DNA from: a virus
Taxonomy: Duplodnaviria > Caudoviricetes
IMG/VR virus record: IMGVR_UViG_2773857766_000004
Span: 52,292 to 116,291 of that record
DNA length: 64,000 bases
Strand: one strand, 5' to 3'
Shown: in pieces, positions 3,918 through 52,670 of the stretch
Position numbering within the stretch: position 1 is the stretch's first letter
Layout of the letters: every line of letters starts with the position of its first letter
Position numbers and translations under genes: made by a program
Notes under the pieces: generated by a model
Told to the model about the DNA's origin: nothing
Seen by the model: the letters and a program-made list of their open reading frames with translations, nothing else
The model's database searches: none

Positions 3918-3955
3918 AGTTTCCCGCCCGGCAGCCACCTCGCCTAACCCTATGC
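3918..3955 (-). promoter_or_regulatory. Putative late promoter 2
   Basis: GCATAGGGT-TAGGCG-N17-GAAACT, ATG 7 nt downstream. Confidence 0.7.
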
Positions 3956-6900: not shown

Positions 6901-9900
6901 ACATGCCGAAATATTGGCGATCGCCCGCGGCGTCCACCACATCCACCGTGTAGCGGCCGAAGCGCGACAGCGGGGCATAGCCCTCGTCCATCAGCTGCTG
7001 CGCCCTCTCCTGGGCTTTCACCACCGCGTTGTTCAGCTTCATCAGCCGTTCGGACCATTCGGGCCGATCCCGGGCGTCGTCCATCAGCGTGCGGGTCAGC
7101 AGCTCCACGGCATCGTCAAGGGTTTCCTGCGCCAGCACCGCGTCGCGCATGCCCGCGTACTCATCGCCCAGGCTGCGCAGCATGTCGGCGCGCGCCGTCA
7201 TGTCGATGGAGCGGTCGATGGCGGCCCGGCCCTCTTGGTAGAGGCTCACCTGGTTCGCGTCGAGCCCGAACATGGTTTCCAGCTCCTTCTGGCTCCACAC
7301 CACGCCGGCCTTGAGCACCCGGCTGTTGAAGCTGGTGTTCACGTTGGCCTCGTACATGCCCACGGGCAGGCCCTGCCAGGCGGTCAGGATCTTCGGGTCC
7401 AAGCGGCCGCCGCGCAGCAGCAGTTGGGCCTTCTGGTCGGCCGGCAGATTCTGGTACTTGGCCGTGAGGTCATCCAGCAGCACCGGGGTGCCGTCGATGT
7501 CCCGCGCCCACATCAGCGTGCCCTCGAACAGCGGGCGCGCCACGGCCTTGTTGTCGGCCGCGGTGATCGGCTTCTTGGTCAGGTCGCGCCAGCTGTCCAC
7601 GCGCGGCAGGAGGCGCGGGGCCATGTCGGCCGCGTCGTTGCCCAGCATGGACACGTCATCGATGAAGCGCTGGGCCGACTCGAACACCGGCTTGAACGCG
7701 GGCGCGCGCTCGGCCAGGTGGCGCATCGTGCCGATCGTCTTGTCCCAGAGCGACACCTTGCCGGGGTGGCTCATCGTCTGCGTGATCTGGTCCAGGGCCG
7801 AGTCCTTCAGCGCGGCGATGCGCTCGCGGCTGAACATCACATCCGGACCGGCCCCAGTTTGCGGCAGATCGGCCTCAGTTTTATAATTGGCGCGGAAGCC
7901 GGAAACTCGCTGTACCACCCCAGGCAATTGGAGCCTGGCCGTCGTGGCGAGTTGCCGGCTTTCTTTTTTGTTCGCAAACTGCAGCAGGCCGTCCCGGATC
8001 CAGCGCGTGAACGTGCGGTCCGCGTTGTCCTTCGGGTAGGCGCTGGGCACATAGACCACCTCGGCCCGGTTGCTGGCGCCGTTCGGATCGACGGCCACCA
8101 CCACCGGGTTGCCGCGCACCACCAAGCTCGTCACCACCACCATCCGCCCGGGCTGGGTGTCCGACTTGAACACCATCACGGGATTCGACAGCAGCTCGCC
8201 CAGCCGCTCCAGATCCGCGCGCGGCACGCCGTGCTCGAAATGCATCTTGGCGAGGAGGTTGCGGTTCGTGACCACCGGCTTGCGTACCACGCCCAGCGCC
8301 TCGAGGGCCGCCGGCGTCTCGATGCCGAGCGGCACCTGGGCGCGCAGCGCGCGTTCGTCGTTGTTCAGGCCGGCGGTGATGGCCGCACGCACCTCGGCCG
8401 CGAACCCGGACCGGGCTTCGTCCTGCGCCAGGCTGTACTGCATGGCTGCCGAGCCCATGCCGCGCTCGCGCGCCGCGGCGGCCCGTTCCACCCAGTTGCG
8501 CGCCGGCAGGATGTAGGCCTGGATGATGTCCGCGTCGCGCAGGCGCAGGCTCCCGAACCCGGGCACGTGCTCGCGCAGGAAGTTGCGGATGGCAGCGACG
8601 GCCCGCTGCACGAAGGACAGCTGCGGATTCTTCTCGGCCATCTCCGCCAGCACCTCCTCCGCCGCCCGGGCCCGGCTGATGCGGTCCACGCCGCGCATGC
8701 CGTACTCGGCCATCTTGGCATCCACGTCAGCGCGGCGCATGGTGGCCACCTGGTTCAGGATCTTGTCCAACTCCGGACCGAAGAGCCCCCGCAGGCCGTG
8801 GTGGCCGGCCACCTCGTGGTACAGCACGCGCGCGGCATCCTCCGGCGTGGTCAGGCGCGATGCCATCAGGTACGCCTTGCCGCCGAAGTAGAACCCCTCG
8901 GGTGCACCATGGGCGCCACCTGAGCGCTGGCGCGTGTCCGCGTCGCGCACGCGCTGGGGAATGATGGGGTCGTTCAGGTCGTAGGCGACCACCACCTCGG
9001 GGGCGTTCTGCCAAGCCGCCACGATCGGGCTGACCGTTGCGCGGATGGACTCTACGGCCTGCAGGCGGGCCTCGGGGGAGAACCCATCACCCTTCCCCAT
9101 GATGCGCAGCAGTTCCGCCGCCATGCCCGCGCCCAGGTCGTCTTGGGCGTATCGACGAAACAACGGCTCGCTCTCAGCGGGGCCTCTCTTCCGCGCGTTG
9201 TCGCGGTTCCGCGCGGGCGCAGAGGGCTCATGGGAAGCAGCGGCCGGGGCCGGCGCGGGGTCCACCTCCATCCGGCCAGCCGGGCCCGTCGCATAGTTCA
9301 CCTTGGAGGGTTCGGTCCCGTGGGTGCGTTCAACCGCGCCAGCCTTGTCCGCCCACGCGCCACTCCCGTCCTTCTGCACCTCGCGCACGGTGACGCTCCA
9401 GCGCCCATCCGCGTCCGCCGGCTGGTAGCTGACCACGCGATCGAACCCGCCGCCGTATCCCCGCACAACGTTGCCGGGGGCGAAGTAGGCGGCGCGGCGC
9501 TCCTCGGCCTCCCGCGCTTCGCGCACGGCCTTGCTCTCGCGCTTGGCCTTCGCGTCCTTCATCTTCTCGGGCACGGTCTTCGGCTTGGCTGCCGGGCTCG
9601 CTTCACCCGCCGCGGCGGGTGTTGCAGGCGCGGCGGCCTTTTCCGCCTTCGCGCGTTTCATGCGTTGCGGCACCGTCTCTGCCGCCGCTGGCGGCGCCGG
9701 GGGCGCAGCAGATGCGCTCTCCGAGGCCGGCAGCGCTGGCGCAGGTGCCGGCGCTGTTTCCGCATCCTTGTCGGGGGCTGGGCCGGCCTCCTCCGCCGCC
9801 GCCGTGGGCAACGCGTCGCCGGCAGCCGGGGCCGCGGCCGGCTTCACTGTCTTGGCAGGGTCGCGCACCCAGTCCTTGAATTCGTCCTGCGTCATCTGGG

Positions 9901-12523
9901 TGATCCCGCCCAGCCCCGTCCAGCCCTTCTCGTAGTTTCCGAGGTAGGTGCTGCGGGCCTCGGCCTCATCGGCCGCGCCCATCACCACCTTGTGCTCGTC
10001 GAATGAACCATCCTTGTTCACCTGGTCCACCACGAACACCGGCAGGGCCGAGTCTTCGGCGCGATCGGTCATGAACACGTCCACGTGGTCCTTGTCCGCA
10101 CCCTTGGTCCCCTTGATGTAGCCGTAATGGTTCTGCAGGGGAGGCCATTCAGGCCGGCGGCGCGTGCCGGCCGGATTCTCGATGCTGATGTCGTGACCGT
10201 TGATGCGAGCGTGGCCCTTCCGATAGTTGCCGGCCAGCTTCTGGGCCTCGGTCGGCTCGGGCAGGTCGTTGCTCAGGCTGGTGGCCGCCTCTTGCGCCGC
10301 GGCTTGCGCCACAGTGGGCGCAGATACCGGAGCAGCAGCTGCGCGCGCGGCACGGGCGCTGGTGCCAGCAGCCTTCGGCGGCACCCTCGCCTCGGCGGCA
10401 GCCGGCACCGGCTGGGCGTCCAGCGGAGGGAACGTGGTGCCGCGCGCCATGGCGACGGGTGCTGCAGGTGCTGGCGCCGGCGCGGCGGCGGCCTCCTGCA
10501 CAGGCGCGATCAGGTCGGCAATTTTGCGCTTCAGATCGCTGTTCAGGTTCTCCCACTTGGCGCCCGCCAGGTTCTTCTGCAGGACGGGCTTGAGGCCCTT
10601 CAGTTGCTCGGCAACCACCTGGCGCTGGACGGTAGGCAATCGGGTCCAGGTCTGGCCGGCGGCATCGATGCGCTGGGCGCGCTGGTCCTTGCTTTCCGGC
10701 GCTGCTTGCGCGCCTGCCGCTGTCTTTGCTTGCGCTCCAGCGTCCGCAGTCGTGGTGCCGCCATTGATCAGTGTCCCTTGCGCTGGTGCGCCAGCAGCGG
10801 CGACGGCCGGAGCCTGCGCTGCTGCTGGTGGTTGGGTGCTCGCTGGTTGGGCTTGGGGGCCATCGGTGGTTCCTTTCACGGGGGTGGATTGCTCGGCGGC
10901 GCGGGCAGCCTTGCGGCGCGACAGCTCCTGCGCCAGCTTGATGCGCACGTCGCGGCCCTGGGCGCCGCGGAAGACTTCCGACAGCTGCGCGTCGCTCCAG
11001 TTGGCCACGTCATCGGAACCGGGGATCTCGCCCGTTTCCGGATCCGCGCCAAGAGGTGACCGCGCCGGCTGCTCCTGTTTCTGGGCCTTGCCGCTCTTCT
11101 CGCCGGCCTCGGCCGCCTGTGCCAACGCGGCGGCCTGCTGCATCTGGTCGGAGACGCCGGTATCCACCGCCATGGCGGCGCCGGTCGAAAGCGGGCCGTC
11201 GGCGGGGTTGATCCCCATGCGCACGGAGCGCGGCACCTGGGCGCCCGTGGACTGGTAGATCTCGTCGTCCGGGCTCTCCACCGCGCGCGAGGCCTCCATG
11301 TCGGCCTGGCGCTGCGCCGCGGCGGCGGCGCGCTGCTCGGCCAGGGCGGCGGCCCCGTCCGGCGGTGCAGACTGGGGCCCGAGCACCTCGCCCTGTTCCT
11401 GCTCCTGCAGCATGCGTAGCTGCTCGGCGAAGGCCTCGCTCACCCGCTCAAGCCCGGGATTGCGCGCCGGGGCCTCTGCCGCCGGCTCGTCGCCAGCGGG
11501 CCGGGCCGCGGCGGGATCGCCCTCGCCGACCGCGGCCGCGCGCGGCCGCGCCGCGGCATGGTAGCCAGCAGCACCAGCCCCCATCGCCCCACCGGACAGG
11601 GCGCCCAGCACGATGGCCGAGTCCACCTGGTCGTACCAGGGCTTGTCGAGCGCGACGTTCTGGAAGATCTGTTCGGCCACGGACTGCGGCAGTTCCTCCA
11701 GCAGGCCCTCGGCGATCGCGCCCTCGATCACGTGCCGCGGGATGCTCTTCACGGCCTGCTGCTGCAGCGGGTTCACGGCGGCGCCGGCCGCCTCGTCGGC
11801 GAACTGGCGAGCCATGCCGCTCCGCCCCTGCGCCAGCATCGTCTCGGCGTCGCCGATGCCCAGGCGCTGCGCGATCCGGCCGCCCACCGCACCGACGGCG
11901 CCCCCCACAGCCCCGGTCGCGGCGGCCAGCCCGGCCTGGCTCGGGGTCAGCAGCCCATCCGGGGTTTCCTGGCGGATCTGCTCGGCCTGCGAGCCGGCCA
12001 TGGTCAGCCCTTCACCGGCAGCCCCGGCGAGCGCGGCGCCCTTGGCCCCCATCTGCCCCAGGCGCGTTGCAGCCAGGAGCCCCCGGCCAATCGCCCCGCC
12101 ACCGATCATGGTGGGGATCGACTCGCCAACGCTGGCGACCACCAGACTGGGGTTCTGCACGGCCGTGACCGCCTTGTCCACGATACCGTCGGCTTCTTGG
12201 AACTTCCGCTGGGCTTCCTTGGTGGCGTCGGAGTGCCAGTCGTTGACGATCTCACGCGTCTGCTTGGGACGGAACCCGACAGCGCCGCCTTCGTTCTCGA
12301 GGAACTTGCCCACGCGGCCACCGGTGAGGATGTCCGCGAGGCCCACCGCGGCCTCGGGAATCGCGATGGCGCCCTTCACTGCGGTAGCGGCGATGTCCTG
12401 GCCCCAGCCTTTGAGCCCGCGCTTCGGCTCTTCGCCATCCAATGCTCCAGAGAACGGCTGTAGCGTGCCGGACGATGGTGCATCAAGAACTCCATCGAAG
12501 GGCTTCAGATTTTGGTCTTCCAT
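3950..12523 (-). CDS. Giant PLxRFG-domain polyvalent ejection protein, intein-containing
   Basis: 2857 aa; PLSRFG at 6956-6973; HEVAGHH zincin motif near 8800; pyrophosphatase-like ISIENP..HYGYI..GADKDHVDV; MuF-C/PBECR-like domain. Confidence 0.88.
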   Translation of the reverse strand: MEDQNLKPFDGVLDAPSSGTLQPFSGALDGEEPKRGLKGWGQDIAATAVKGAIAIPEAAVGLADILTGGRVGKFLENEGGAVGFRPKQTREIVNDWHSDATKEAQRKFQEADGIVDKAVTAVQNPSLVVASVGESIPTMIGGGAIGRGLLAATRLGQMGAKGAALAGAAGEGLTMAGSQAEQIRQETPDGLLTPSQAGLAAATGAVGGAVGAVGGRIAQRLGIGDAETMLAQGRSGMARQFADEAAGAAVNPLQQQAVKSIPRHVIEGAIAEGLLEELPQSVAEQIFQNVALDKPWYDQVDSAIVLGALSGGAMGAGAAGYHAAARPRAAAVGEGDPAAARPAGDEPAAEAPARNPGLERVSEAFAEQLRMLQEQEQGEVLGPQSAPPDGAAALAEQRAAAAAQRQADMEASRAVESPDDEIYQSTGAQVPRSVRMGINPADGPLSTGAAMAVDTGVSDQMQQAAALAQAAEAGEKSGKAQKQEQPARSPLGADPETGEIPGSDDVANWSDAQLSEVFRGAQGRDVRIKLAQELSRRKAARAAEQSTPVKGTTDGPQAQPASTQPPAAAQAPAVAAAGAPAQGTLINGGTTTADAGAQAKTAAGAQAAPESKDQRAQRIDAAGQTWTRLPTVQRQVVAEQLKGLKPVLQKNLAGAKWENLNSDLKRKIADLIAPVQEAAAAPAPAPAAPVAMARGTTFPPLDAQPVPAAAEARVPPKAAGTSARAARAAAAPVSAPTVAQAAAQEAATSLSNDLPEPTEAQKLAGNYRKGHARINGHDISIENPAGTRRRPEWPPLQNHYGYIKGTKGADKDHVDVFMTDRAEDSALPVFVVDQVNKDGSFDEHKVVMGAADEAEARSTYLGNYEKGWTGLGGITQMTQDEFKDWVRDPAKTVKPAAAPAAGDALPTAAAEEAGPAPDKDAETAPAPAPALPASESASAAPPAPPAAAETVPQRMKRAKAEKAAAPATPAAAGEASPAAKPKTVPEKMKDAKAKRESKAVREAREAEERRAAYFAPGNVVRGYGGGFDRVVSYQPADADGRWSVTVREVQKDGSGAWADKAGAVERTHGTEPSKVNYATGPAGRMEVDPAPAPAAASHEPSAPARNRDNARKRGPAESEPLFRRYAQDDLGAGMAAELLRIMGKGDGFSPEARLQAVESIRATVSPIVAAWQNAPEVVVAYDLNDPIIPQRVRDADTRQRSGGAHGAPEGFYFGGKAYLMASRLTTPEDAARVLYHEVAGHHGLRGLFGPELDKILNQVATMRRADVDAKMAEYGMRGVDRISRARAAEEVLAEMAEKNPQLSFVQRAVAAIRNFLREHVPGFGSLRLRDADIIQAYILPARNWVERAAAARERGMGSAAMQYSLAQDEARSGFAAEVRAAITAGLNNDERALRAQVPLGIETPAALEALGVVRKPVVTNRNLLAKMHFEHGVPRADLERLGELLSNPVMVFKSDTQPGRMVVVTSLVVRGNPVVVAVDPNGASNRAEVVYVPSAYPKDNADRTFTRWIRDGLLQFANKKESRQLATTARLQLPGVVQRVSGFRANYKTEADLPQTGAGPDVMFSRERIAALKDSALDQITQTMSHPGKVSLWDKTIGTMRHLAERAPAFKPVFESAQRFIDDVSMLGNDAADMAPRLLPRVDSWRDLTKKPITAADNKAVARPLFEGTLMWARDIDGTPVLLDDLTAKYQNLPADQKAQLLLRGGRLDPKILTAWQGLPVGMYEANVNTSFNSRVLKAGVVWSQKELETMFGLDANQVSLYQEGRAAIDRSIDMTARADMLRSLGDEYAGMRDAVLAQETLDDAVELLTRTLMDDARDRPEWSERLMKLNNAVVKAQERAQQLMDEGYAPLSRFGRYTVDVVDAAGDRQYFGMFETKADSNRMKAEMEKQFPGATVTQGTMSQDAFKLFAGVTPESLEMFGSMLGLDGKGDDPKDKAFQAYLQLAKNNHSALKRLIHRKGVAGYSEDVGRVLASFVYSNARLGAGGLNAGTMESAINAIPKEQGELKDLAMGLRDYIANPQEEGQAVRGMLFAQYLGGSVASAAVNMMQPFQITMPWLSQFGGMRKAGAQMARALKDMSRKGFQYEPDLAAAMQSAEEDGVVSPQEIHQLMSQARGTGSLRTGDGTKVGDARAAVANNWERVKVAWGQPFALAEQFNRRSTFIAAYRMAKEQGMAEPSNFARKAVLETQFVYSKANKPRFARGAVGGALFCVDDTTEALTQRGWVGPDHLVPGDMLASFDMTTERLIWAPMASVHIFDHDGEMVHAKSKTLDMLMTPDHRVVHYKRKRTKGAQRGTTHWELGVAEAQDIPASHRVQIPTAAPFDHLPTGEPITDAQARVLGWVVTEGWFTKKNRGREEWGGALKLYQNEGRTADLIRADLDAAGLEYTETTWNYVGGNAAHIRFNIKKSSAAVLRKMLPGKQLTPALLMRMTKAQIELLVDRMIEGDGSESAAGQRCLIQNPGQTLETFQMALTILGKSFRVSKHGPSCRKVLIRESQRTENGRYSVKESERVRYTGRVWCPIVPGTSTWVARRNGMPFITHNTFKTYSVSYLELMHRMWTQGGPEGKRAVGWAIAMLLLMSGAGGLPFMEDAEDLIDGAAQMMGYNLSSKQWRKQLLADVMGKEIADFVEQGVSGLPGAPVDVSGRMGLGNLLPGTGLLLSKQNRERDLLEVAGPAGDLIARGFTAGRKLLTGDAGGAALEVAPTAVRNAVKGVDMAATGIYKDKKGYKVIDTTLAEAGAKFLGFQPKSVAEVQEANSFMQRTKTFYTQTSSEIKAQWADALFRKDDAALAEARERLADWNRNNPEQPIVVKMPDVWKRVREMGKDRTQRIADTAPKALRQQMREAAREAGQAPA
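4892..5890 (-). mobile_element. Intein (333 aa) with LAGLIDADG homing endonuclease
   Basis: GALF|CVDDTTEALTQRGW ... TPDHRV (block B) ... LGWVVTEG and MIEGDGS ... VWCPIV..TWVARRNGMPFITHN|TFKTY: Cys1, terminal His-Asn, +1 Thr; 999 nt in frame. Confidence 0.93.
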
Positions 12524-12529
12524 CCCTCC

Positions 12530-12567
12530 ACTGTCCGCGCTACGGGGCGGAGTGGCGAGCCCTATAC
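12530..12567 (-). promoter_or_regulatory. Putative late promoter 3
   Basis: GTATAGGGC-TCGCCA-N17-GACAGT, ATG 6 nt downstream. Confidence 0.7.
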
Positions 12568-12724
12568 GGTGCGAAGGAGCCGATACCGCTCATGTCGTGC
12601 TCCTGTAACGGGAGCAGGTCGGCAGGCTTGGCACGGGGCCCAGGCGCAACATGTCGCACTTCTTGCAATGTCTTCGCGGACGTGTATATACACCGCGCGA
12701 AAATTAGCGGTACTATTGCATCCC

Positions 12725-13024
12725 ATGAAGAACTTAGAAATCTCTGGAGGCGTACTTGACAAATTGGCAAACAAGCATCAAGTAGAGAGGAAAGAGGTAG
12801 AGCAGTGCTTCAGGAACATCAATGGCCCGCTGCTCATCGATAACAGGGAAGACCACAGGACCAATCCTCCGACGCTGTGGTTTCTGAGCTATACCAACAA
12901 GGGCCGTTTACTCAAGATCGCGTATATACAAAGAGGCTCAACGATCCATCTGAGGACGTGCTATGAGCCCAACCAAAACGAGATCAGCATTTACACGAGT
13001 CACACCAAACGGAGAGTCAAATGA
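12725..13024 (+). CDS. BrnT-like (RelE superfamily) toxin
   Basis: 99 aa from ATG 12725; KLANKHQVERKEVEQCF...TNKGRLLKI...LRTCYEP; overlaps an RHH gene; lower GC. Confidence 0.7.
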   Translation: MKNLEISGGVLDKLANKHQVERKEVEQCFRNINGPLLIDNREDHRTNPPTLWFLSYTNKGRLLKIAYIQRGSTIHLRTCYEPNQNEISIYTSHTKRRVK

Positions 13025-13344
13025 ACAAGTTCGCAGGCACTGATGAAGCATGGGAGGAGCGCCAACTGGGCGCTGACGCCGACCACGCAGAGGTGGCCGG
13101 TGCGGAGCATATGGCAGCGCTGGACGAGGCGATGGGCATGCAGTCCATCTCGATCCGACTGCCCAAAGGAATGATCGACGCATACAAGCTGATCGGCGCT
13201 CACCATGGCGTCGGGTACCAGCCTCTGATGCGAGACATCCTGCAACGCTTCATCCCTGAAGGGTTGAAGGAAGTGCTGGACCACCACCAGCAAAAGGCCA
13301 CACAAGCAGAAGGCCGCATTGAGGAGCTGCGGAAGGCGGCCTGA
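13021..13344 (+). CDS. BrnA/CopG-like RHH antitoxin
   Basis: SISIRLPKGMIDAYK...GVGYQPLMRDIL; ATGA overlap with the toxin. Confidence 0.75.
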   Translation: MNKFAGTDEAWEERQLGADADHAEVAGAEHMAALDEAMGMQSISIRLPKGMIDAYKLIGAHHGVGYQPLMRDILQRFIPEGLKEVLDHHQQKATQAEGRIEELRKAA

Positions 13345-13362
13345 TGCCGTACCTTGCCCCAG

Positions 13363-13388
13363 AAGGCCCGCTTCGCGCGGGCCTTTTT
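13363..13388 (+). terminator. Intrinsic terminator after TA operon
   Basis: AAGGCCCGC-TTCGC-GCGGGCCTT followed by T run. Confidence 0.7.
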
Positions 13389-13536
13389 CATGGTCGAATA
13401 ACCGAACGGTAATTGCTCCACGATAACGGGGGCTGTGCCCGCACCTGCCTCAGTGCGCCGGCCTCTTACCCTCCCAGCATAGGAGGGCCCCATGAACGAG
13501 AAGACCATCGCCACCCTCTTGCTTCCGGCCGCCTCC

Positions 13537-13611
13537 GTCGCCTGCATCCTGGACAAGGCCCCAGACGTGGCGAACGACACGGCAGCGCGGGCGGTCTACC
13601 ATCTGAGCCAG
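13537..13611 (+). pseudogene. Fragment paralogous to the 15811-16161 moron gene
   Basis: VACILDKAPDVANDTAARAVYHLSQ versus MATCILDKAPGVANDTAALAVYQLCQ; similarity then stops. Confidence 0.75.
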
Positions 13612-13706
13612 CCGTCACGGCCCTGGCCTGCCAATTCCTAAAGTGCCCTCTGCACCTGCGCCCGCGAAGGGGAACGCCCTGCTACATTCCTGCGGGGAGG
13701 TACACC

Positions 13707-13790
13707 ATGGACGGCTTCATCAACAACATCTGGACCGGCCGCGCCGGGCTTGCGAAGACCTACTGGGGCTATGGGTTCCTGGGCGGGCTG
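13707..13790 (+). pseudogene. Probable truncated 5' end of a membrane-protein moron
   Basis: TGCTACATT extended -10, GGAGG RBS, MDGFINNIWTGRAGLAKTYWGYGFLGG, then runs into the antisense of ant. Confidence 0.4.
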
Positions 13791-13813
13791 GAGAGCCCCG
13801 TACCGACCCTTGA

Positions 13814-14764
13814 TCAAGCCCGCCGAGGCGCCGGCAGAATCTCCATAAAGCCTGGTTCCTGCATCCCAGCCACAGGGCAGCGGCCACGCAGGGCTCGCAG
13901 AATGCCAACCAGATCCGCGGCTTGGTCGCTCATGGGGTGAAACAGCATACCAAGTCGGTCGAGGCGGGTCGTGATGGCTTCCTGCTGCGCCCTTGACACA
14001 GGAGATCGCAAGCCGCACTTCGACAGCACGGCGTTGACCAGCGGCATGAAGACTTCCACCGGCGTGCCGTTTGGCCCTTCCACCTGCCTCACCATTCGGG
14101 CAACCTGCTCGTTCAGCGCACCAGAGGACGGCGCTTCGTCCACCAGATCCCATTCGGCCGTGTGCCGCGCTACGATAGACAGCGCCTCAGTGAACTCGCT
14201 GCGCGGAATCTGCCTGTACGACACATGGAAGTGTGCCTTGAGCTTGCTCCACCCCTTCACCATGGCCGCAGCCCGCTTGTGCTTCGGAAGCCGGTCAACC
14301 GCCGTGGTCAGCATCAGCCGCAGGGCTTCCGCCTCCTCGCCCGTCAGCACGTCGCCCGGGCTGACCGAGTACAGCGCCCGCGGGTTGACAGCGATGCCCT
14401 CGTTCCAGTAGTGCCAGAGAGCGTCATCGCACTCGTTCTGGTACTGAATGACGCGGGCGCGGACTTGGGGGCTCTTGACCTTGCCCGGCTCGATGGTGGT
14501 CAGCCATGCCGCCGTCTTCCGCACAGGCAAGCAAGTCATGGCCTGCTCGCCACCGGCCGAAGGTATTGTCAAGTTGACAATACCCCAGCGCGACTCGTTG
14601 GCCGCCACCTTGCGGAACTGGCTCCCCCAGTCCAGCCCCATGGCCGCGACGATCGGCTTCATGGGTGTGTACGGCTGCCCGTTGTTCTCCACGACATACA
14701 GGTCAGCGCCATGGAAGGGGACGGTGATTGCGCGGCCGGCCGCGACTTGCGTAGAATTCGACAT
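13814..14764 (-). CDS. ant: P22-type antirepressor (AR N-terminal domain)
   Basis: AITVPFHGADLYVVENNGQPYTPMKPIVAAMGLDW..Q and QYQNECDDALWHYW; likely start MSNSTQ. Confidence 0.85.
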   Translation of the reverse strand: MSNSTQVAAGRAITVPFHGADLYVVENNGQPYTPMKPIVAAMGLDWGSQFRKVAANESRWGIVNLTIPSAGGEQAMTCLPVRKTAAWLTTIEPGKVKSPQVRARVIQYQNECDDALWHYWNEGIAVNPRALYSVSPGDVLTGEEAEALRLMLTTAVDRLPKHKRAAAMVKGWSKLKAHFHVSYRQIPRSEFTEALSIVARHTAEWDLVDEAPSSGALNEQVARMVRQVEGPNGTPVEVFMPLVNAVLSKCGLRSPVSRAQQEAITTRLDRLGMLFHPMSDQAADLVGILRALRGRCPVAGMQEPGFMEILPAPRRA

Positions 14765-14840
14765 GTTGAATCCTTCTGTCAGAGGTTGGGTTTGGACACT
14801 CGACGCCCCGGTTGCTGCAACTTCCGGGGCGTTTCCTTTT

Positions 14841-15020
14841 TCAGGCCGTCTTGGCATGCTGGGCCTCCTGGGCCTCCTGGGCCTCTTTGGCCTGTGCCAA
14901 AAACTTGTTGACCAGCCAGTTCATTGAGCGGTCCTGCTCCTTCGCCTGGGCCTTGATCCATTCATGGACCTGGGTTTGCAGCCGGACCTTCAGTTGCTCA
15001 CCCGCTTGAGTTGATTTCAT
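14841..15020 (-). CDS. Arc-like RHH repressor (59 aa, not in ORF track)
   Basis: MKSTQAGEQLKVRLQTQVHEWIKAQAKEQDRSMNWLVNKFL; upstream of ant as in P22 immI. Confidence 0.75.
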   Translation of the reverse strand: MKSTQAGEQLKVRLQTQVHEWIKAQAKEQDRSMNWLVNKFLAQAKEAQEAQEAQHAKTA

Positions 15021-15031
15021 GGCTCCCTTTC

Positions 15032-15101
15032 ATGAACCTATTAGGTCCACGCAGCCAATGTACCTTTTAGGTCCATTGTCGTCAACACCTATTTGGCCCA
15101 T
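15032..15101. promoter_or_regulatory. immI-like control region: three operators and leftward promoter
   Basis: ATGAACCTATTAGGTCCAC (15032), ATGTACCTTTTAGGTCCAT (15058), CAACACCTATTTGGCCCAT (15083); minus-strand TTGACG-N17-TACATT. Confidence 0.72.
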
Positions 15102-15113
15102 CATCCGCACCCG

Positions 15114-15650
15114 ATGAAGCAGACCGACCCGCAGTACAAACTCCGAATCCCTCCGGACCTGAAGGAGCAAATCGAGACCGCCGCAAAGGAGTCAGGCCGC
15201 TCCATGAACGCCGAAATCGTGGCGCGTCTGGAGGATTCATTTGCTGCGCGAAACGACGGAACCGTGTTGGCAGCCATGGACGTGGTGCGCAGGGAGTGGG
15301 AGCTAAGTGCGACCGTCAACCGGCTTGAATTCACGCTCCGTGGCTACCAGGATCAGTTGAGCTTTTTGCGTCAACGGATGGCGCGGGAACGGAGGCTGCT
15401 GAAGAACCTTCAGGAGGTTCGCGACCAAGCCCGGCAACGAGGTGACCTCGCCCAGGTTGAGCACATCCAGGCCGAAATCGATGAGAACGAGGAGTGGATG
15501 AAGGCTTCAGAGGTCGAGTTGAAGCAACTCGAGGACGTCATCACTGCAATGAAACGGCAGCTGGTGGACGTCATGCATGCAGCGGTGAAAGCTGGAGATG
15601 AACAGCTGAAAGCCGTGACGCCGGTAGATCCTGCGCCGCCACGCAAGTAG
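15114..15650 (+). CDS. Arc/Mnt-family DNA-binding protein with coiled-coil C-terminus
   Basis: MKQTDPQYKLRIPPDLKEQIETAAKESGRSMNAEIVARLEDSF; divergent from arc-ant. Confidence 0.82.
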   Translation: MKQTDPQYKLRIPPDLKEQIETAAKESGRSMNAEIVARLEDSFAARNDGTVLAAMDVVRREWELSATVNRLEFTLRGYQDQLSFLRQRMARERRLLKNLQEVRDQARQRGDLAQVEHIQAEIDENEEWMKASEVELKQLEDVITAMKRQLVDVMHAAVKAGDEQLKAVTPVDPAPPRK

Positions 15651-15810
15651 CGTCGCGCGGCGCTGAGCTGCGTGGTCATGGCGACCATGAAGCCGCCCGC
15701 CAGCCACCCAGGGTCTGGCTCGGGCACGCCCATCGAACTGTTCTGACCGCTCCAGACATTCCAGGTGCGCACTGGTAAGAACGGAGCGCCGCTCTGCTAC
15801 ATTGCCCTCC

Positions 15811-16161
15811 ATGCGCCGAGTCATCGTCCTAACCGCCCTACTCTGCACCCAGTCGGCGTGGGCGTCCAACATGGCCACCTGCATCTTGGACAAGGCCCCA
15901 GGCGTCGCAAACGACACGGCCGCCCTGGCGGTCTACCAACTCTGCCAGTCGGAGAACCCTGGGGGCTTCGATGCTGTGCCCCAAGGCTCGGCCCGCGGCC
16001 TATTTGGGTTCAAGTCTGGCGCCGAGTGCACGTCCAAGAAGGCCGCGGCCACCCGAAGCAACAGAGCCGCCGTCTTCGTTGGTGTTGCTTGCCGGAAGCT
16101 GTATGACGATGCACCTGAAGGCTTCAGGCCATTCAGCGGCAAGCTCGACCACGAACGCTAG
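15811..16161 (+). CDS. Secreted four-cysteine moron protein (VF_A0006-like), candidate superinfection exclusion
   Basis: Signal peptide MRRVIVLTALLCTQSAWA; four Cys in mature part; ends GFRPFSGKLDHER; TGCTACATT extended -10 seven nt before ATG. Confidence 0.7.
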   Translation: MRRVIVLTALLCTQSAWASNMATCILDKAPGVANDTAALAVYQLCQSENPGGFDAVPQGSARGLFGFKSGAECTSKKAAATRSNRAAVFVGVACRKLYDDAPEGFRPFSGKLDHER

Positions 16162-16164
16162 ACC

Positions 16165-18390
16165 TTAAGAAGCAACGAAACGCTTACCACTTGCGTCTTC
16201 GTAAACGGGCTTTCCTCCAGAGGTTCCGACCAGTTTCTTCATACCCGCAGGCAGCGCAGATCCCTGCCCCACATCCACCCGCTGCACGTCCCCTGTCGCT
16301 TGGTTGTACCGGAGCACACTCCCCTCGCTGGTAGAGCCATCGGCGTTCTTGACCGCGGGCGTGACCTGTACGCGCCAGTCGTTCTGGCCCTGGCCAGCCA
16401 GCGCCCGCAGTGCCCGCTGTGCCTGCGCCTTGGCGGCCTCTGATGCGGTGGGATCGACAAGCACGCCGCGCAGTTGCTCCTGCTGGGCCGCGATGCGGTT
16501 GGCGTAGCCCTGGGCCTCCACCTGGCTGTCCACCGACCGCCGTTGCGTGGCGGCCTGCTGCGCCGCAATGCCAGTCCGCTGCGCTTCGACAGCGGCTCGG
16601 GCGCCGGCACGTTGGGTCTCACCGGCCTGCTGCATTTCTTCGCGCGCCAGTGCCGCGTTCTGGCGCATGGCTTCGGTGTCCATGCCCGGCTGTGCCGCGC
16701 GGGCCGCGAGATCGGCATTGGTCATGGCCGCCGCGGTGGCTGCCTCTGGCGACATGCCCTTGTGCTGGTCCCACCGGCCGCCGTTGTTCATGATGCTGGA
16801 GGCCGATACCTGGGCGTTGCGAAGGTCGTTGCGGGCCTGCCAGTCGTTGCCCGAGTGACGGGCTACCGGCGCCGAGAATGCACCAGGCTGGAAGCCCCGA
16901 ACCGGTGAGTCCTCCGGCTGGGGTCGCATGCCGGGCGCGAAGCCGCGCACCATGCTTTCTGCAGCAGCATCTGCCGCGGCGGTGGGCCGGCCGGAGAACC
17001 CGCGGGGGAAGTTCATGCCCGTCGCTTGGTCGCTGAACTGCCCACGGCCGTGCTCGAAAACGCCTGGGCGCACCTCGGCGGCCGAGCCCGTTGCGGCTTG
17101 CGCAGTGGCCGGCTGAGCGCCAGCCTGCTGCATTACGCTGCGGCGGCTCTCCTCCGCCATGCCCGGCGCGAAGCCGCGTGCTGCAGGAGATGCTGTCGGC
17201 GCTGCTGCGGGAGCATCTGCAGCGGCGGGGGCAGCCGCGGGAGCGGGCGCGGCGTCGACCGTCCCGAACAGCCCCGAGCCGAAGCCTCGTGCCGCGCCGA
17301 TGATCGGCTCGGAAACCTTGTCCGCCAGCTCCAGCCCGTACATGCCCAGCCCCTGCACCGCGGTGCGCGCAGCAGTGCCGGCGGCCTGGGCGTAGTTGCC
17401 GGAGCTCACCTGGTCTTTCAGCTCCTGCGCCCGGTCCTGCATGTACAGCTCGGACGGCCCGGCCGCACGCTGGTCGGACTGCCCGCTCGGGCGCGGCGAG
17501 AAGCCCCGAGTCTGGGGTTCGGCCTCCGGCGCGGCGCCGACGTAGGGGCTGCGGCCCGCGCTCGGGCTGCCCTGCGGGTAGATGTTGGAGGGGGAGATTT
17601 GCTTGCGCCGCTCTTCGTCCTTGACCACGCCGCCATCGGCGAAGCTCGGACGCGTCGCGTACGTGGTCGCAGGCGGCAGGCCGGGCGGACGCTGGAGTGC
17701 AGGCGCGGGGAAGCCCACGGCCGCCGGCGCGGCGCTCACAGGCGTGGTGCTGCCCAGCGGGGTTGGCGCGGTGCCGGGGGGCGCCGTGTTGGCGGGCTGG
17801 CTCATGCTGGCCAGCTTGCTTTGCGCAGCATCGCGGTCGGCGCTGGGCATGATGGAGCTGGCCGTCACCTCCAGGCTGCGCTGGGCGTTGCGCTCCGCCC
17901 ACCCCATCGGTGCCCCGGGCGCCGCTGCGGCGGCTGCAGGCGCTGGGGCAGCCGGCTGGGCTGCCGTCGCGGCGGCGCTCTGCGGCGGGTCGCTGACCAG
18001 CCCCCCGTTGGCGAAGAAGAAGCGCGGCTCCGGCGGCGCCGGCGGCCGTGCTCCCGGGGAAAAGCCGCGCACCGGCGCGTGGGTCGCATCCTTCATCTGG
18101 TCCAGCGCCTGCACGCCGATGGCATGCACCTGCTCCGGCGGCAGCTTGAACTCGCCGTTGCTCAGGTTCACGGCCACCTTCCGACCGGGCTGGAAGCCGC
18201 GCGCGCCCATGGTCTCGAGGTTCTGAGCCCCCACCTGTTGGGTGCTGTCGGCCGGCATGATGTAGGTGCCCGGCGCAACGGCGTCCTGCACGTCATCGGA
18301 GGTGCCGGTGCCAGGCCCGCGCACCACGCCGCCGCCGGCATATCCACTGGTCTTGGCGGCACGGTGCGCCGCCGGTTGAAAGCCTCGCAT
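16165..18390 (-). CDS. Ejection/internal virion protein, A/P/Q-rich with RGFxP repeats
   Basis: Start MRGFQP after AGGAGG; GPGTGTSDD..LSNGEF and FAxGG motifs resembling tape-measure-like segments. Confidence 0.65.
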   Translation of the reverse strand: MRGFQPAAHRAAKTSGYAGGGVVRGPGTGTSDDVQDAVAPGTYIMPADSTQQVGAQNLETMGARGFQPGRKVAVNLSNGEFKLPPEQVHAIGVQALDQMKDATHAPVRGFSPGARPPAPPEPRFFFANGGLVSDPPQSAAATAAQPAAPAPAAAAAAPGAPMGWAERNAQRSLEVTASSIMPSADRDAAQSKLASMSQPANTAPPGTAPTPLGSTTPVSAAPAAVGFPAPALQRPPGLPPATTYATRPSFADGGVVKDEERRKQISPSNIYPQGSPSAGRSPYVGAAPEAEPQTRGFSPRPSGQSDQRAAGPSELYMQDRAQELKDQVSSGNYAQAAGTAARTAVQGLGMYGLELADKVSEPIIGAARGFGSGLFGTVDAAPAPAAAPAAADAPAAAPTASPAARGFAPGMAEESRRSVMQQAGAQPATAQAATGSAAEVRPGVFEHGRGQFSDQATGMNFPRGFSGRPTAAADAAAESMVRGFAPGMRPQPEDSPVRGFQPGAFSAPVARHSGNDWQARNDLRNAQVSASSIMNNGGRWDQHKGMSPEAATAAAMTNADLAARAAQPGMDTEAMRQNAALAREEMQQAGETQRAGARAAVEAQRTGIAAQQAATQRRSVDSQVEAQGYANRIAAQQEQLRGVLVDPTASEAAKAQAQRALRALAGQGQNDWRVQVTPAVKNADGSTSEGSVLRYNQATGDVQRVDVGQGSALPAGMKKLVGTSGGKPVYEDASGKRFVAS

Positions 18391-18417
18391 GGAGCCTCCT
18401 GTGATGCAGATGTGCCG

Positions 18418-18455
18418 ATTCTTCGGCCCAGCCGCACGCCTGCAAAGCCCTATAC
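18418..18455 (-). promoter_or_regulatory. Putative late promoter 4
   Basis: GTATAGGGC-TTTGCA-N17-AAGAAT upstream of RBS AGGAGG. Confidence 0.7.
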
Positions 18456-18508
18456 GCGGGCGTTGAGCCGGCTGCCTGAGCTCAGCAGGGTGGTCCAACA
18501 CCTTTCCG

Positions 18509-18661
18509 TCAACCGCCGGCACCGCAGTTGTAGTTGTGGCCGGTCGTTTTGGTGGTGTTCCAGGTTTCTCCCTGGCTACCTTGCCCAGGAATTCCGGCCG
18601 ACACGTGGATAGCCGGCATTGCGTCGGCCGCGAGCTGGGCGGCGCACTGCGCGTCACCCAT
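18509..18661 (-). pseudogene. Orphan alternative C-terminus of the upstream coiled-coil virion protein
   Basis: AQCAAQLAADAMPAIHVSAGIPGQG aligns with SQAASTLAAGAMAGISLGSSVSGGS at the end of 18654-20567. Confidence 0.55.
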
Positions 18662-20567
18662 TGGTCGTTGAACCGGGTGTTGGAATCTGCATCGACTCCG
18701 AGTAGTTTGCGGACGCACTGACACCCGATCCGCCGCTCACGCTGGAGCCGAGAGAGATACCAGCCATCGCGCCGGCCGCCAACGTGGAAGCGGCCTGGCT
18801 TGCGGACTTCAGGGCTTCGAGTTGGATCGACGCCACACGGATCATCTGTTCCATGTCCGCGACGTACTTCCGGATTTCCACCTCGTAGGCTGCGATCGAG
18901 GTCCGCATGTTGGCCTCCTGGGCCTGCAACTGCAGGCCGATCGCGGCGCTCTCGGCGCCTACCTTGGCCGTGTACCGTGCCGTGTTGGCCCGGTGCGCCT
19001 CGGCATTGGCCTGGATGGCGGCGCTCTGCTGCTGGATGAGCGTTTTGTCCTTGTCGAGGTTCGCCACGAAGGCCTGCACGCGCAGCTGCGCCTGCGAAAT
19101 CTCGGCCGCCTGGTTCTTGATGCTGATGTCGGCCTTCGCGGCTTGGCCGGAGACATACGCGCTGTAGGCGCGCGCCTGGGCGTCGATGAGGGAGGCCTTG
19201 GCGGTCTCGCCCTTGACGCGACTTTCGTAGGCGTCGAAGCGCACCTTGTCGGCCTGCAGCAGCTCGGCGTGCGCCTGCACCTCGGCCTTGAAAATTTCCA
19301 AGCGCGTGCGCTGTTGCTCGGATTCGAGCTGCGCGCCCTGCATCTGCGACTTGTAGATTTCCAGGTCCAGCTGCAGCGCCTGCACCTGGGCCTGGTAGGT
19401 GCGCACTCGCTGTTCGTTGACCTGGCCCTTTGCCAGCTCCCCGTCCAGCTCGGCGCGGTACACCTGGATCCGTGCAAGCTGGGCGTCCAGGCGTGCGCGG
19501 AACACGGTGGCCTCTGTTGCATAGGCCGACTGCTTCGCGTTGAAGATGGCGATCTGTGCGTTCAGCAGCGCCAGCTCGCTGTCCAGTTGGATCTTGGCGG
19601 CCTCGAAGGCCCGGCCCGCCACGGCGGACCAGATCCCCACCAGCACCTGTTCTGCGGCAATGGCCTGGGTGCAGGCGAACCGCACATTCTCGATCTGGGC
19701 ATCCGTGACCTTGATGAGAACGTCCCGGCCCAGCGTCTGCTTGCGCAGCATGGCCTCGGACCGGATGGCGTCGATGCGGTTGACCATCATGCCCGGCGGC
19801 ATGGTGAACCCGCGCGAGGAGAACTCCGTTGCGGCGGCCGATATGTCCCGGCTCACGGCGATGTCTTCACGCGATGCGGCGCGCTCCCAGAGGGCTTTTT
19901 CCACCGCAGGCGGAAGCCCCGTGCCGCCAGCCCACATCCGGCGCAACTGGGCCAACTCCTCCTCCAGGATGGTGACCTTGTAGGGCACCTCCCGCCACTG
20001 GAGCACGGTCGATACGTGGCTGCCCTGGAACTCGGGCGACTGGGCTGTGAATTCCGGCAGCGTCGGGAAATCGAAATGCGGAATCACGATGTTGTCCAGC
20101 GAGGGGAGCAGCGGTTTCTCCAGCCGAGGCGCCTCTGGCGGCACCACCTCCCGTATCGCAGGCGCCGTCGGCGCGGCCCCGTAGTCGCGCCAGTCCGGTG
20201 CCTCCGGAATCTGGATGGCCGCGAACCCAGGATTGAAGCCTTCGACCTCGATCTGCTGCACCGGGGCGATTGCGCCCACGCCCACGTCCGAACGGTTCAC
20301 GGGCGTCACGACGCCGAAGCTGTCGCGGCCCAGGTCCGGCAGCTCCAGATTGCCGGTGACGCTGGCCTGCAGATCCGGGACATCCGGAGCGCTGCCGGAC
20401 ATCAGCAGTGCAGGCGTGAACTTGCCCATCTCTTCGATCGTCTGCCGGGCCGCGTCCTGGGCCTTGACTGCCCGCTCGATCGCACTGCCCTGCCTCTCCA
20501 GCACGGTGTCGCGGATCTGCTTCGCCGCGTCGTAGGCCTCGGCAAATGCCCCTGTTGCTTCTCCCAT
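18654..20567 (-). CDS. Long coiled-coil virion/ejection protein
   Basis: Start MGEATG after GAAGGAG; Pro-rich N-half, A/Q-rich helical C-half, Ser/Gly-rich tip. Confidence 0.65.
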   Translation of the reverse strand: MGEATGAFAEAYDAAKQIRDTVLERQGSAIERAVKAQDAARQTIEEMGKFTPALLMSGSAPDVPDLQASVTGNLELPDLGRDSFGVVTPVNRSDVGVGAIAPVQQIEVEGFNPGFAAIQIPEAPDWRDYGAAPTAPAIREVVPPEAPRLEKPLLPSLDNIVIPHFDFPTLPEFTAQSPEFQGSHVSTVLQWREVPYKVTILEEELAQLRRMWAGGTGLPPAVEKALWERAASREDIAVSRDISAAATEFSSRGFTMPPGMMVNRIDAIRSEAMLRKQTLGRDVLIKVTDAQIENVRFACTQAIAAEQVLVGIWSAVAGRAFEAAKIQLDSELALLNAQIAIFNAKQSAYATEATVFRARLDAQLARIQVYRAELDGELAKGQVNEQRVRTYQAQVQALQLDLEIYKSQMQGAQLESEQQRTRLEIFKAEVQAHAELLQADKVRFDAYESRVKGETAKASLIDAQARAYSAYVSGQAAKADISIKNQAAEISQAQLRVQAFVANLDKDKTLIQQQSAAIQANAEAHRANTARYTAKVGAESAAIGLQLQAQEANMRTSIAAYEVEIRKYVADMEQMIRVASIQLEALKSASQAASTLAAGAMAGISLGSSVSGGSGVSASANYSESMQIPTPGSTTNG

Positions 20568-45492: not shown

Positions 45493-45884
45493 GCGGCGGC
45501 CGGTGGTGGTTGTAGGGGTGGGCTGGGGGCCGTCTCCGTCACGGCCTTTTCATGCTTTACCGGCTTCAGGGCCATCAGCGCTTTGAGCTGTCGGAACTCT
45601 TCCGAGCAGAGCGCGAGAACCCTGTCGCCGGCTTCGATATGCACAGTTCCAGTTGAAAACTCGCTGAAGGTGATGGAGACGGGTCCGGGAACCGCGGGAC
45701 GCAGCGTTTCAACTGGGGCGGCCGGCGGACACACAGCGTCCTGCATAGCCGCCAGGACTGCGCCGGTGCGTTCAACCAGTTGCAACGACTCGCGCTGGCT
45801 TCGCGCTGCACGAGTAGGAGCACGCGCGCGCTGCATGCGCCCCCGCATCAGGAACCACGAGACGTGTGGCACGGGCTTAGCCAT
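45489..45884 (-). CDS. Hypothetical protein
   Basis: GGAGG RBS inside cro end; coupled. Confidence 0.45.
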   Translation of the reverse strand: MAKPVPHVSWFLMRGRMQRARAPTRAARSQRESLQLVERTGAVLAAMQDAVCPPAAPVETLRPAVPGPVSITFSEFSTGTVHIEAGDRVLALCSEEFRQLKALMALKPVKHEKAVTETAPSPPLQPPPAAA

Positions 45885-52253: not shown

Positions 52254-52670
52254 GTGCCCAAGCTCATCAACCCCACCCTGCAGGCCAAGCGCCAGTCGGT
52301 GGTCGATTTCCTCGCCAACGCCGTTCCGTCGGTGGCGGAGGAGGCGACCGACGGCCTCAACGACCTCGTGCACGCCACCACCGAAACCGGCAAGGCTGGC
52401 GAGATGGTCATCAAGATCAAGATGCGCCCCATCGGTGGCAAGGCCGGCCAGATGGAGATCGATGCCGAGGTCAAGACCAAGCTGCCGCAGCCGACGCGCG
52501 GCAAGACCATCCTCTTCGCGACCGCGGACAACAACCTGCAGCGCACCGATCCGCGCCAGCAGACCCTGGACGGCGTCCGCGACGTGAACCAGGAATCCGT
52601 CGCCCAGCAGGGTGGGGTGCGCAGCGTAGCGCCCGAGGCGAAGCAGCCCCTGCGCGCAGTCACCCACTGA
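52254..52670 (+). CDS. YfdP-like hypothetical protein
   Basis: TGKAGEMVIKIK..LFATADNNL; precedes the DUF2303 gene. Confidence 0.6.
   Translation: MPKLINPTLQAKRQSVVDFLANAVPSVAEEATDGLNDLVHATTETGKAGEMVIKIKMRPIGGKAGQMEIDAEVKTKLPQPTRGKTILFATADNNLQRTDPRQQTLDGVRDVNQESVAQQGGVRSVAPEAKQPLRAVTH

Follow-up and report, generated by a model that had tools for sequence, protein, structure and literature searches.

The window (the whole stretch of DNA that was analysed; 64,000 nt, positions 52,292 to 116,291 of IMG/VR virus record IMGVR_UViG_2773857766_000004) is part of a 116-kb provirus record, in which portal, major head protein, large terminase and head-closure protein were recognised, and contains an F116-group podovirus prophage. 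Its block of ejection-protein genes (ej1, ej2 and giant) resembles that of the F116-like Pseudomonas podophages (genus Hollowayvirus). Three short elements of this block are the subject here: the C-terminal tip of ej2, a peptide motif present in two copies at the N-terminus of the giant protein, and the C-terminal tail of a small four-cysteine protein (the moron), the gene of which is convergent with ej2. The insert between ej2 and giant was found to hold the moron, an Arc-like gene, a small ribbon-helix-helix (RHH) gene, Ant, two truncated remnants of genes of the putative decoy type discussed below, and a BrnT/BrnA-like pair; the coordinates are collected in Table 1.

Table 1. Features of the window, in the order of their positions (TM, transmembrane; aa, amino acids).
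Feature	Position	Strand	Remarks
Giant virion/ejection protein	3950..12523	(-)	2857 aa; Pfam, PHROGs
Intein-like insertion in giant	4892-5890	(-)	giant residues 2212-2544, 333 residues
Giant variable N-terminal cassette, codons 2-35	12419..12520	(-)	two motif copies; diverges from locus L046 between conserved flanks
BrnT/BrnA-like toxin-antitoxin pair	12725-13344	(+)	phrog_18652; CopG_antitoxin, phrog_17810
Second four-cysteine moron remnant, truncated	13492..13641	(+)	49 aa; second match in own record
3-TM carrier family remnant, truncated	13707..13940	(+)	MDGFINNIWTGRAGLAKTYWGYGFLGGL...; homology to P0108, P0114
immI-like region	13814..15650	mixed	Pfam P22_AR_N + Arc; PHROG Ant + Arc
Ant antirepressor	13814..14857	(-)	immI-like region
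Small RHH protein	14841..15020	(-)	immI-like region
Arc-like protein	15093..15650	(+)	immI-like region
Extended -10-like element	15795..15803	(+)	TGCTACATT; 7 nt before ATG 15811
Moron, four-cysteine protein	15811..16161	(+)	116 aa from ATG (119 aa from TTG 15802)
Moron variable C-terminal tail	16108..16158	(+)	DAPEGFRPFSGKLDHER; mimic motif PFSGKLD at 16129-16149
ej2, internal virion/ejection protein	16165..18390	(-)	741 aa; phrog_11341; between ej1 and giant
ej2 variable C-terminal tip	16168..16257	(-)	...LPAGMKKLVGTSGGKPVYEDASGKRFVAS; proposed lock for PFxGxLD
ej1	18654..20567	(-)	637 aa; upstream of ej2, same operon; phrog_10969

The moron is predicted to be a secreted, soluble, periplasmic protein; a signal peptide is predicted at 15811-15864 (MRRVIVLTALLCTQSAWA, followed by SN), and ATG 15811, which fits the family consensus, is the likely start codon, not TTG 15802. 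The C-terminal end of the moron (...FRPFSGKLDHER) carries PFSGKLD; the N-terminus of the giant protein (MEDQNLKPFDGVLDAPSSGTLQPFSGALDGEEPKRGLKG) carries PFDGVLD (12482-12502) and PFSGALD (12437-12457). The original prediction had named these three motifs, and over all six reading frames of the 64 kb PF.G.LD was found at these three places and nowhere else (300 local-composition shuffles of the window: mean 0.047, maximum 1). Its further observations were likewise borne out: different codons are used (PFSGALD and PFSGKLD share 6 residues, and the same codon for Phe only); the moron abuts ej2 (moron stop 16159-16161, ej2 stop 16165-16167 on the other strand, gap 3 nt); the four Cys (C27, C48, C76, C97) are invariant in 44 aligned family members; and the ej2 tip and the first giant codons are less GC-rich than the gene bodies (tip, 16168-16257, 54.4% vs 72.5% for the ej2 body; giant codons 1-35, 55.2% vs 68.5% for the remaining gene).

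The search returned 86 moron homologues, 79 of which carry precomputed PF28034.1; in the Atlas the moron stands in PF28034 clusters (VF_A0006 four-cysteine protein, score 0.94), and neither a family in the local Pfam copy nor a PHROG match was obtained. All 86 homologues have a common core that ends ...ACRKLYDE and is followed by 10-30 residues of unrelated, recurring tail types: PF[TSN]GKLDGE, DGWWKKxxTP, SEIDRFLN, PNFFDQFD, GPWxQY, FDPSTARP, TFTYEEAF, DRFGGVLV, DWExG and others; PF.G.LD is found in the tail of 20 of them. The AlphaFold2 (AF2) model (query plus 43 of the 86 matches) is helical in the core (predicted local distance difference test, pLDDT, 84.5), the signal helix being followed by five others, and its tail is unstructured; Foldseek of this model against PDB gave no solved relative (best E = 8.6). 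Some four-Cys members were seen without an ej2 or giant homologue found nearby (L037-L040, L022, L027, L030, L034); their tails fit none of the recognised classes, and the family thus extends beyond this phage slot.

Correspondence of tail and giant N-terminus: The moron-selected set consisted of moron homologues with 10 kb of sequence on either side, 49 loci being from genomes and 49 from IMG/VR; together with the window these gave 99 sources, 96 with a moron open reading frame (ORF) and 90 with a complete tail. Loci that agreed with another in the last 90 moron residues and in the ej2 tip were removed as duplicates, tails of <8 residues were dropped, and 74 loci remained. The moron was masked and the best six-frame Smith-Waterman match of its own tail was located; it fell within the first 100 codons of the left minus-strand ORF in 50 of the 74 loci vs 68 of 1480 shuffled tails (4.6%). 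Where the left ORF was of ≥1000 aa, the tail matched the first 100 codons of the giant gene in 37 of 40 unique loci; the misses were L018, a true mismatch, and L031 and L037, in which the long ORF is not a giant homologue. In most other failures the moron lay within 5 kb of a contig end or in a non-phage context. The likeness of tail and giant is at the protein level only: the two genes lie on opposite strands, and 163 of 358 identical aligned residues in the 50 loci share the codon (46%) vs 180 (50%) expected from codon usage. Gene conversion or a DNA repeat as the source of the likeness was rejected on these codon counts. Short motifs can recur and phage genomes are mosaic, and the resemblance might be a functionless by-product of recombination or chance; the number of motifs in the window, the location of the tail matches and the unshared codons all speak against this, as do the concordant switches between close relatives and the use of the same code on unrelated scaffolds (below), and such an origin is considered very improbable.

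In P. aeruginosa F116-like phages the moron is found between ej1 and ej2, ~2.3 kb from the ej2/giant junction, and its tail (...KPWEEYQ) still matches the ...KPWEEF repeats of the giant protein. An unannotated four-Cys moron was noted in this place, between ej1 and ej2 homologues, in the cultured phages LKA5, phiC725A, JBD90, E220, F1Pa and Atpa001. In LKA5 (L179; KC900378) it lies at record positions 45509-45805, where only predicted promoters are annotated; no gene is annotated at the match in LKA5, phiC725A, E220 and F1Pa, the JBD90 record is without any annotation, and in Atpa001 the match overlaps three hypothetical proteins. For F116 and H66 the same search gave ej2 matches and no moron match.

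Co-variation of tip, tail and giant motif: The original prediction had described the three parts as one co-varying specificity cassette and set co-variation beforehand as its test; the co-variation found was strong. Tip, giant motif and tail of the convergent gene fall into at least 14 discrete classes, which switch together in ~100 related phages. Tail class vs ej2-tip cluster gave an adjusted Rand index (ARI) of 0.823 (permutation maximum 0.089; 64 unique loci). The tip families (last ~30 residues of ej2) map one-to-one onto the tail classes, with two tip families serving two related motif classes each. The pairs were as follows (motif, ej2 tip family): PFxGxLD, ...GGKPVYEDAxGxRF; [GK]PWxx[YF], ...G[YW][RK][FY][KR]GGxP...W; FS[FY][ED][ED]A[FYS], ...GQVYQTxRGxAxWxG; [QE]I[DE]xFL, ...REQKVEALRKLGY; NFFDQFD and NPFxDPxYG, ...NPxxAAxFDxx[YF]GxG; DWExG, ...RPVGTxSxVGxKxAxWDGxKW; FDPxTA, ...GxxYVDAxGxxA; WWKxG and xFGGxL, ...AQFxALPxGxxYxxxDGxxYRK; DLFDEF and LAxEFGL, a helical tip.

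Tail and tip abut, so that linkage could yield the pairing; hence loci were added by the ej2 N-terminus alone, the GPGTGTSD domain of which is conserved in 166 IMG/VR stretches. The best 80 of these 166 were taken, 76 with complete ej2 and 59 unique. Tip and giant motif remain paired in 23 unique loci without a decoy (ej2 stop to giant start <150 nt), and further motif classes were seen in this ej2-selected set (xWGxND, FDPDAYLAG, YLTDxEVGF, NPFxQF). The two sets were pooled (124 entries, 99 unique; moron-selected loci kept only with a left ORF of ≥1000 aa). Giant motif vs tip gave ARI 0.47 unsupervised and 0.76 with regular-expression (regex) motif classes (permutation maxima ≤0.085); among the 71 loci in which ≥500 nt separate the two parts the values were 0.50 (unsupervised) and 0.68 (regex classes), and over all these tests the permutation maxima were ≤0.089. 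The regex classes were drawn up with the data in view; the tests by alignment and by clustering involved no such post-hoc definition. The motif occurs twice or more in the first 95 giant residues in 91 of the 99 loci (by the post-hoc class patterns), and a blind repeat score of the giant N-terminus exceeded every shuffle in 62 of the 99. The giant N-terminus of L013 holds two motif classes, each twice (PFxGxLD and GPWxxY); the tail of the adjacent decoy is GPWIEY, and the locus ends before the ej2 tip.

Close relatives with unlike tips: In 60 locus pairs the 115 residues before the tip are ≥70% identical and the tip clusters differ. Among the 40 pairs inspected the giant motif (and the tail, if present) differs too, except in the L043 rows and in two L145 rows, the latter with a spurious ORF as "giant"; L006/L007 (97% identical before the tip) and L163/L168 (96%) are examples of a concordant switch. 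The window has such a counterpart in L046 (Paracidovorax citrulli DSM 17060), to which it is 97.9%, 93% and 97.8% identical over three long blocks (ej1 region, window 16256-21299, 97.8%). L046 differs in giant codons ~2-35, where DWEKG-type repeats stand twice between the conserved flanks; in the last 30 ej2 codons, identity being resumed at window position 16256; and in the gene that abuts the ej2 stop, which codes for a protein of 138 aa with three TM-like segments, is not of the four-Cys type and ends ...VDWEKGELSPPPTR.

Alternative carriers of the tail: Thirty-six unique loci of the ej2-selected set have a gap of ≥150 nt, and 9 of these contain an ORF that is convergent with ej2, terminates ≤5 nt from the stop codon of ej2 and bears a tail matching the giant motif. 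The carriers are four-Cys proteins (L140, L154, L174), members of a 3-TM "AGLAKTYWGYG" family (L099, L105; L046 also), members of a second membrane family (L100, L147), a single-pass protein (L164) and a short ORF (L165); in addition, a four-Cys moron was found by tblastn 4 nt from the ej2 stop in L160, and in L178 the motif is internal. Besides the four-Cys family, at least three unrelated, predicted membrane scaffolds at the moron position carry the cognate tail. By hydropathy and positive-inside reading, a crude method, the tails of the membrane carriers were all placed in the periplasm. Nine closest relatives of the L046 carrier were compared: the class motif was found in the tail of six by regex and of two by eye, and one is without a tail; more distant relatives end directly after the third TM segment, without a tail.

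A different account of the same data was considered, in which decoy tail and giant motif bind a third partner, e.g., a host periplasmic or inner-membrane factor for insertion of the giant protein; the decoy would saturate this factor and the tip would co-vary by adjacency. The tip is indeed always adjacent to one of the other two parts, and linkage alone could carry it. Within single host genera (Comamonas, Paracidovorax/Acidovorax, Pseudomonas), however, at least 14 unrelated motif classes occur, which is hard to reconcile with a single conserved partner in the host; the hypervariability of the tip, which is sharply bounded at ~30 codons, calls for a function of the tip; and related motifs pair with related tips (DLFDEF + LAxEFGL; NFFDQFD + NPFxDPxYG). 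A third partner is therefore considered unlikely.

Nature of ej2 and of the giant protein: ej2 is related to F116-group phage proteins and stands in the position of the T7 internal virion protein (IVP) C; its sequence, searched against PDB, returned no T7 protein. The giant protein is polyvalent (Pfam, PHROGs): InPase (residues 759-886) and MuF_C (1428-1524) domains were recognised, the C-terminal half is of PLxRFG type, and an intein-like insertion is present; its residues 1389-2847 are ~51% identical to giant proteins of F116-like Pseudomonas phages. One of the latter, H66 gp60, is given as a structural protein and as a homologue of T7 IVP-D (gp16) by comparison of hidden Markov models in the accessible part of PMC4819975, and that of PMC5217972 also supports this status. 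In phmmer of the giant protein against PDB a portal-fused InPase domain only was returned, and no T7 gp16. Since ej2 occupies the IVP-C slot, the giant protein is a putative IVP-D homologue and the parts co-vary, the tip is read as a lock and the motifs as its keys.

The last 80 residues of ej2 were modelled by AF2 (10-sequence alignment): a conserved beta unit is followed by a low-confidence linker and by three short strands in the tip (residues 56-78 of the 80). In a wide structural search with this model only generic beta matches were obtained (Z ≤ 3.1), spanning residues 3-48 and not the tip. A WW-like peptide-binding module, a three-stranded antiparallel sheet of ~30 residues, may be considered for the PFxGxLD-type tip.

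Proposed mechanism: The ej2 tip would be a small peptide-binding module. After ejection, the two tandem keys would tie ej2 tips together and thereby join the giant protein to the ej2 tube in the periplasm, the T7 gp16-N "molecular tape" that stitches the gp15 C-terminal domains serving as the model. The prophage would export one copy of the key to the periplasm, on a soluble four-Cys protein here and on small membrane proteins in relatives; being monovalent, the mimic would cap the incoming tips of the same class without cross-linking them, the conduit would be left incomplete and the DNA kept out. The outcome would be class-specific superinfection exclusion by a decoy in the sieA slot. On the sequence evidence, such docking of the ej2 tip on the tandem N-terminal peptide of the giant protein, with capping by an exported single-copy mimic and exclusion of same-class phages, is judged probable. 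The broader proposal extends to the F116 group: a polymorphic lock-key code of at least 14 classes, exported single-copy key mimics that have evolved repeatedly on at least four unrelated scaffolds, tails with two different keys that exclude a second class, and frequency-dependent escape from the decoys that diversifies the code and makes the lock-key pair hypervariable; this is judged slightly more probable than not.

Tails with two motifs, a foreign one and then the cognate one last, were found in L042, L044, L053 and L105; this would be explained by a role in exclusion and not by one in self-assembly. Tandem two-class tails include FDPSTAR + GPWRKY, DWERG + NPFADPNYG and DRFGGNLV + KPFDGKLD; proteins P0091 and P0095 have them also. 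Mimicry as such implies no more than a partner common to the tail and the giant N-terminus, and the exported mimic might bind ejection proteins for a purpose other than exclusion, as a sensor, for protection of cells or debris from progeny, or for modulation of the phage's own lysis or release; membrane-anchored carriers could in principle signal. Against this, the carriers are tiny and without a recognisable signalling or effector domain (no Pfam family or PHROG for the moron; no PADLOC match for the moron, the L046 carrier, ej2 or the toxin-antitoxin pair), four unrelated scaffolds have only the tail in common, and foreign-class motifs in the tails fit exclusion of other phages best; another purpose is regarded as quite unlikely.

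Several points weigh against the lock-key-decoy interpretation. In every arrangement the ej2 tip abuts either the decoy tail or the giant start; owing to this adjacency, co-variation is not fully separable from co-inheritance of one small non-homologous block. Two loci are discordant: L043, on a contig of a metagenome-assembled genome, has tail and tip of GPW type and ISYEDAF in the giant protein (by moron and tip it duplicates L042, and it was left out of the unique set for that reason), and L018 has the tail DWENG and FDPxxAR in the giant protein, with no ej2 beside the moron. A periplasmic mimic would be unable to compete if ej2 and giant protein were docked to each other before they leave the virion. 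A decoy is not a constant companion of the lock-key pair, as 23 of the 59 unique ej2-selected loci have no room for one. The model of the tip is of moderate confidence (mean pLDDT 69) and without a fold match. Finally, no difference in specificity was reported between two P22 SieA types, and class-specific exclusion is thus not general to this gene slot.

Promoter and RNA: The original prediction had given the moron an extended -10 promoter of its own. The element TGCTACATT is present and its type is enriched in the family (TGnTAnnnT within 70 nt upstream, 17 of 57 family genes vs 47 of 3700 random windows, 1.3%); a full sigma-70 promoter was not obtained, the consensus scan upstream of the moron with both hexamers required giving 0 sites. 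TGnTAnnnT often ends 6-7 nt before the moron ATG (window, L002, L005, L006, L007, L019, L028, L053, L057, L058), a spacing that is compatible with a leaderless mRNA. RNA-library contigs span the moron (X14, 15708-16437; X15, 15896-16354) and cover the immI region also, which indicates presence only; contig cover was missing from some ej2-body bins in two runs. Such gaps prove nothing, and depth cannot rank genes.

Neighbouring features: The insertion of 333 residues in the giant protein looks like an intein; it starts with Cys and ends ...THN, followed by Thr, and LAGLIDADG-like stretches were seen by eye. Its flanks are contiguous in six homologous giant proteins (L008, L016, L044, L055, L059, L083), and in comparison with these the insertion was found only in the window and L046. 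A Pfam scan of the stretch gave no family. The long ORF 18654..21158 (-) overlaps a 659-aa ORF 20567..22546 (-); as the ej1 homologue is likely to begin near 20567 (MGEATGAF...), the 197 codons of the long ORF upstream of this point are probably non-coding. The BrnT/BrnA-like pair sits directly upstream of the giant gene start, and bin 12611-13211 has by far the highest contig depth in two RNA-library runs (~6150 and ~6760). Both decoy-gene remnants are placed between this pair and Ant. In the 3-TM-family remnant the homology to 3-TM carriers is limited to ~the first 28 codons; the CTGCTACATT element that stands before the moron precedes this remnant too. The two truncated remnants suggest that insertion of the immI/moron block displaced older decoys.

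Comparison with known systems: With respect to gene position the analogy to P22 sieA, drawn in the original prediction, holds, both genes being convergent with an ejection-protein gene and beside an immI region. In P22, sieA is convergent with gene 16 (stops 22 nt apart, vs 3 nt for moron and ej2) and is followed by mnt, arc and ant. DNA injection is prevented by P22 SieA, and phages escape it through mutations that affect C-terminal regions of the ejection proteins gp16 and gp20 (Leavitt et al. 2024, PMC10883804); as far as the accessible part of that paper extends, two very different SieA types do not differ in specificity, and neither class specificity nor co-variation is reported, in contrast to the cassette proposed here. 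SieA is a polytopic inner-membrane protein, whereas the moron of the window is predicted to be soluble and periplasmic with an N-terminal signal-like helix only, and the carriers of the relatives have 1-3 TM-like segments. In BLASTP against SieA the moron did not align, and the 3-TM carrier reached no better than E = 0.22. P22 SieA was also tried as a hidden mimic and rejected (last 30 residues within shuffles vs gp7, gp20 and gp16).

In T7, the gp16-N "molecular tape" stabilises the flexible gp15 C-terminal domains and completes the periplasmic tunnel after ejection (Swanson et al., PMC8954989, accessible part). The likeness lies in the binding of an IVP-D-type N-terminal part to the C-terminal part of the preceding ejection protein, which is proposed here from sequence; unlike in T7, the key would be a motif of 7-9 residues in two tandem copies at the giant N-terminus and the lock the last ~30 residues of ej2, both polymorphic. 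TP-J34 Ltp, Tuc2009 Sie and HK97 gp15 are prophage envelope proteins that block DNA injection, with escape mapping to the conduit-forming tape measure protein; they belong to long-tailed phages and to other families, and phage-peptide mimicry or polymorphic classes are not described for them in the accessible part of PMC10883804. The moron is a member of PF28034 by the annotation of its relatives and by its Atlas cluster; the variable tail and the link to ejection proteins do not figure in the family description consulted. In the literature nothing was found under VF_A0006, and neither a docking code nor decoys were found described (most subscription journals lay outside the search). Prophage FimU mimics that act on the pilus are reportedly among the nearest works.

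In nonribosomal peptide synthetases and polyketide synthases, docking domains pair a short C-terminal element with the N-terminal element of the next protein in compatibility classes, and in polymorphic toxin-immunity cassettes a variable C-terminal tip is followed by a cognate small gene; both are analogies only, the biology being unrelated. To our knowledge, the rules of ejectosome assembly are poorly known outside T7 and P22. If the proposed mechanism is true, a modular docking code would be revealed in podovirus ejectosomes; the extreme mosaicism of ejection-protein termini would have a reason; the uncharacterised PF28034 and unannotated ORFs of cultured Pseudomonas phages would gain a role; and cross-exclusion among temperate phages could be predicted from sequence alone. 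Superinfection exclusion would then have, for the first time, a mechanism understood down to a short peptide, the prophage disarming incoming relatives by export of the very peptide that their injection machine needs for assembly. Prophage exclusion aimed at the DNA-injection conduit is known; the polymorphic logic of peptide mimicry would be new and without precedent.

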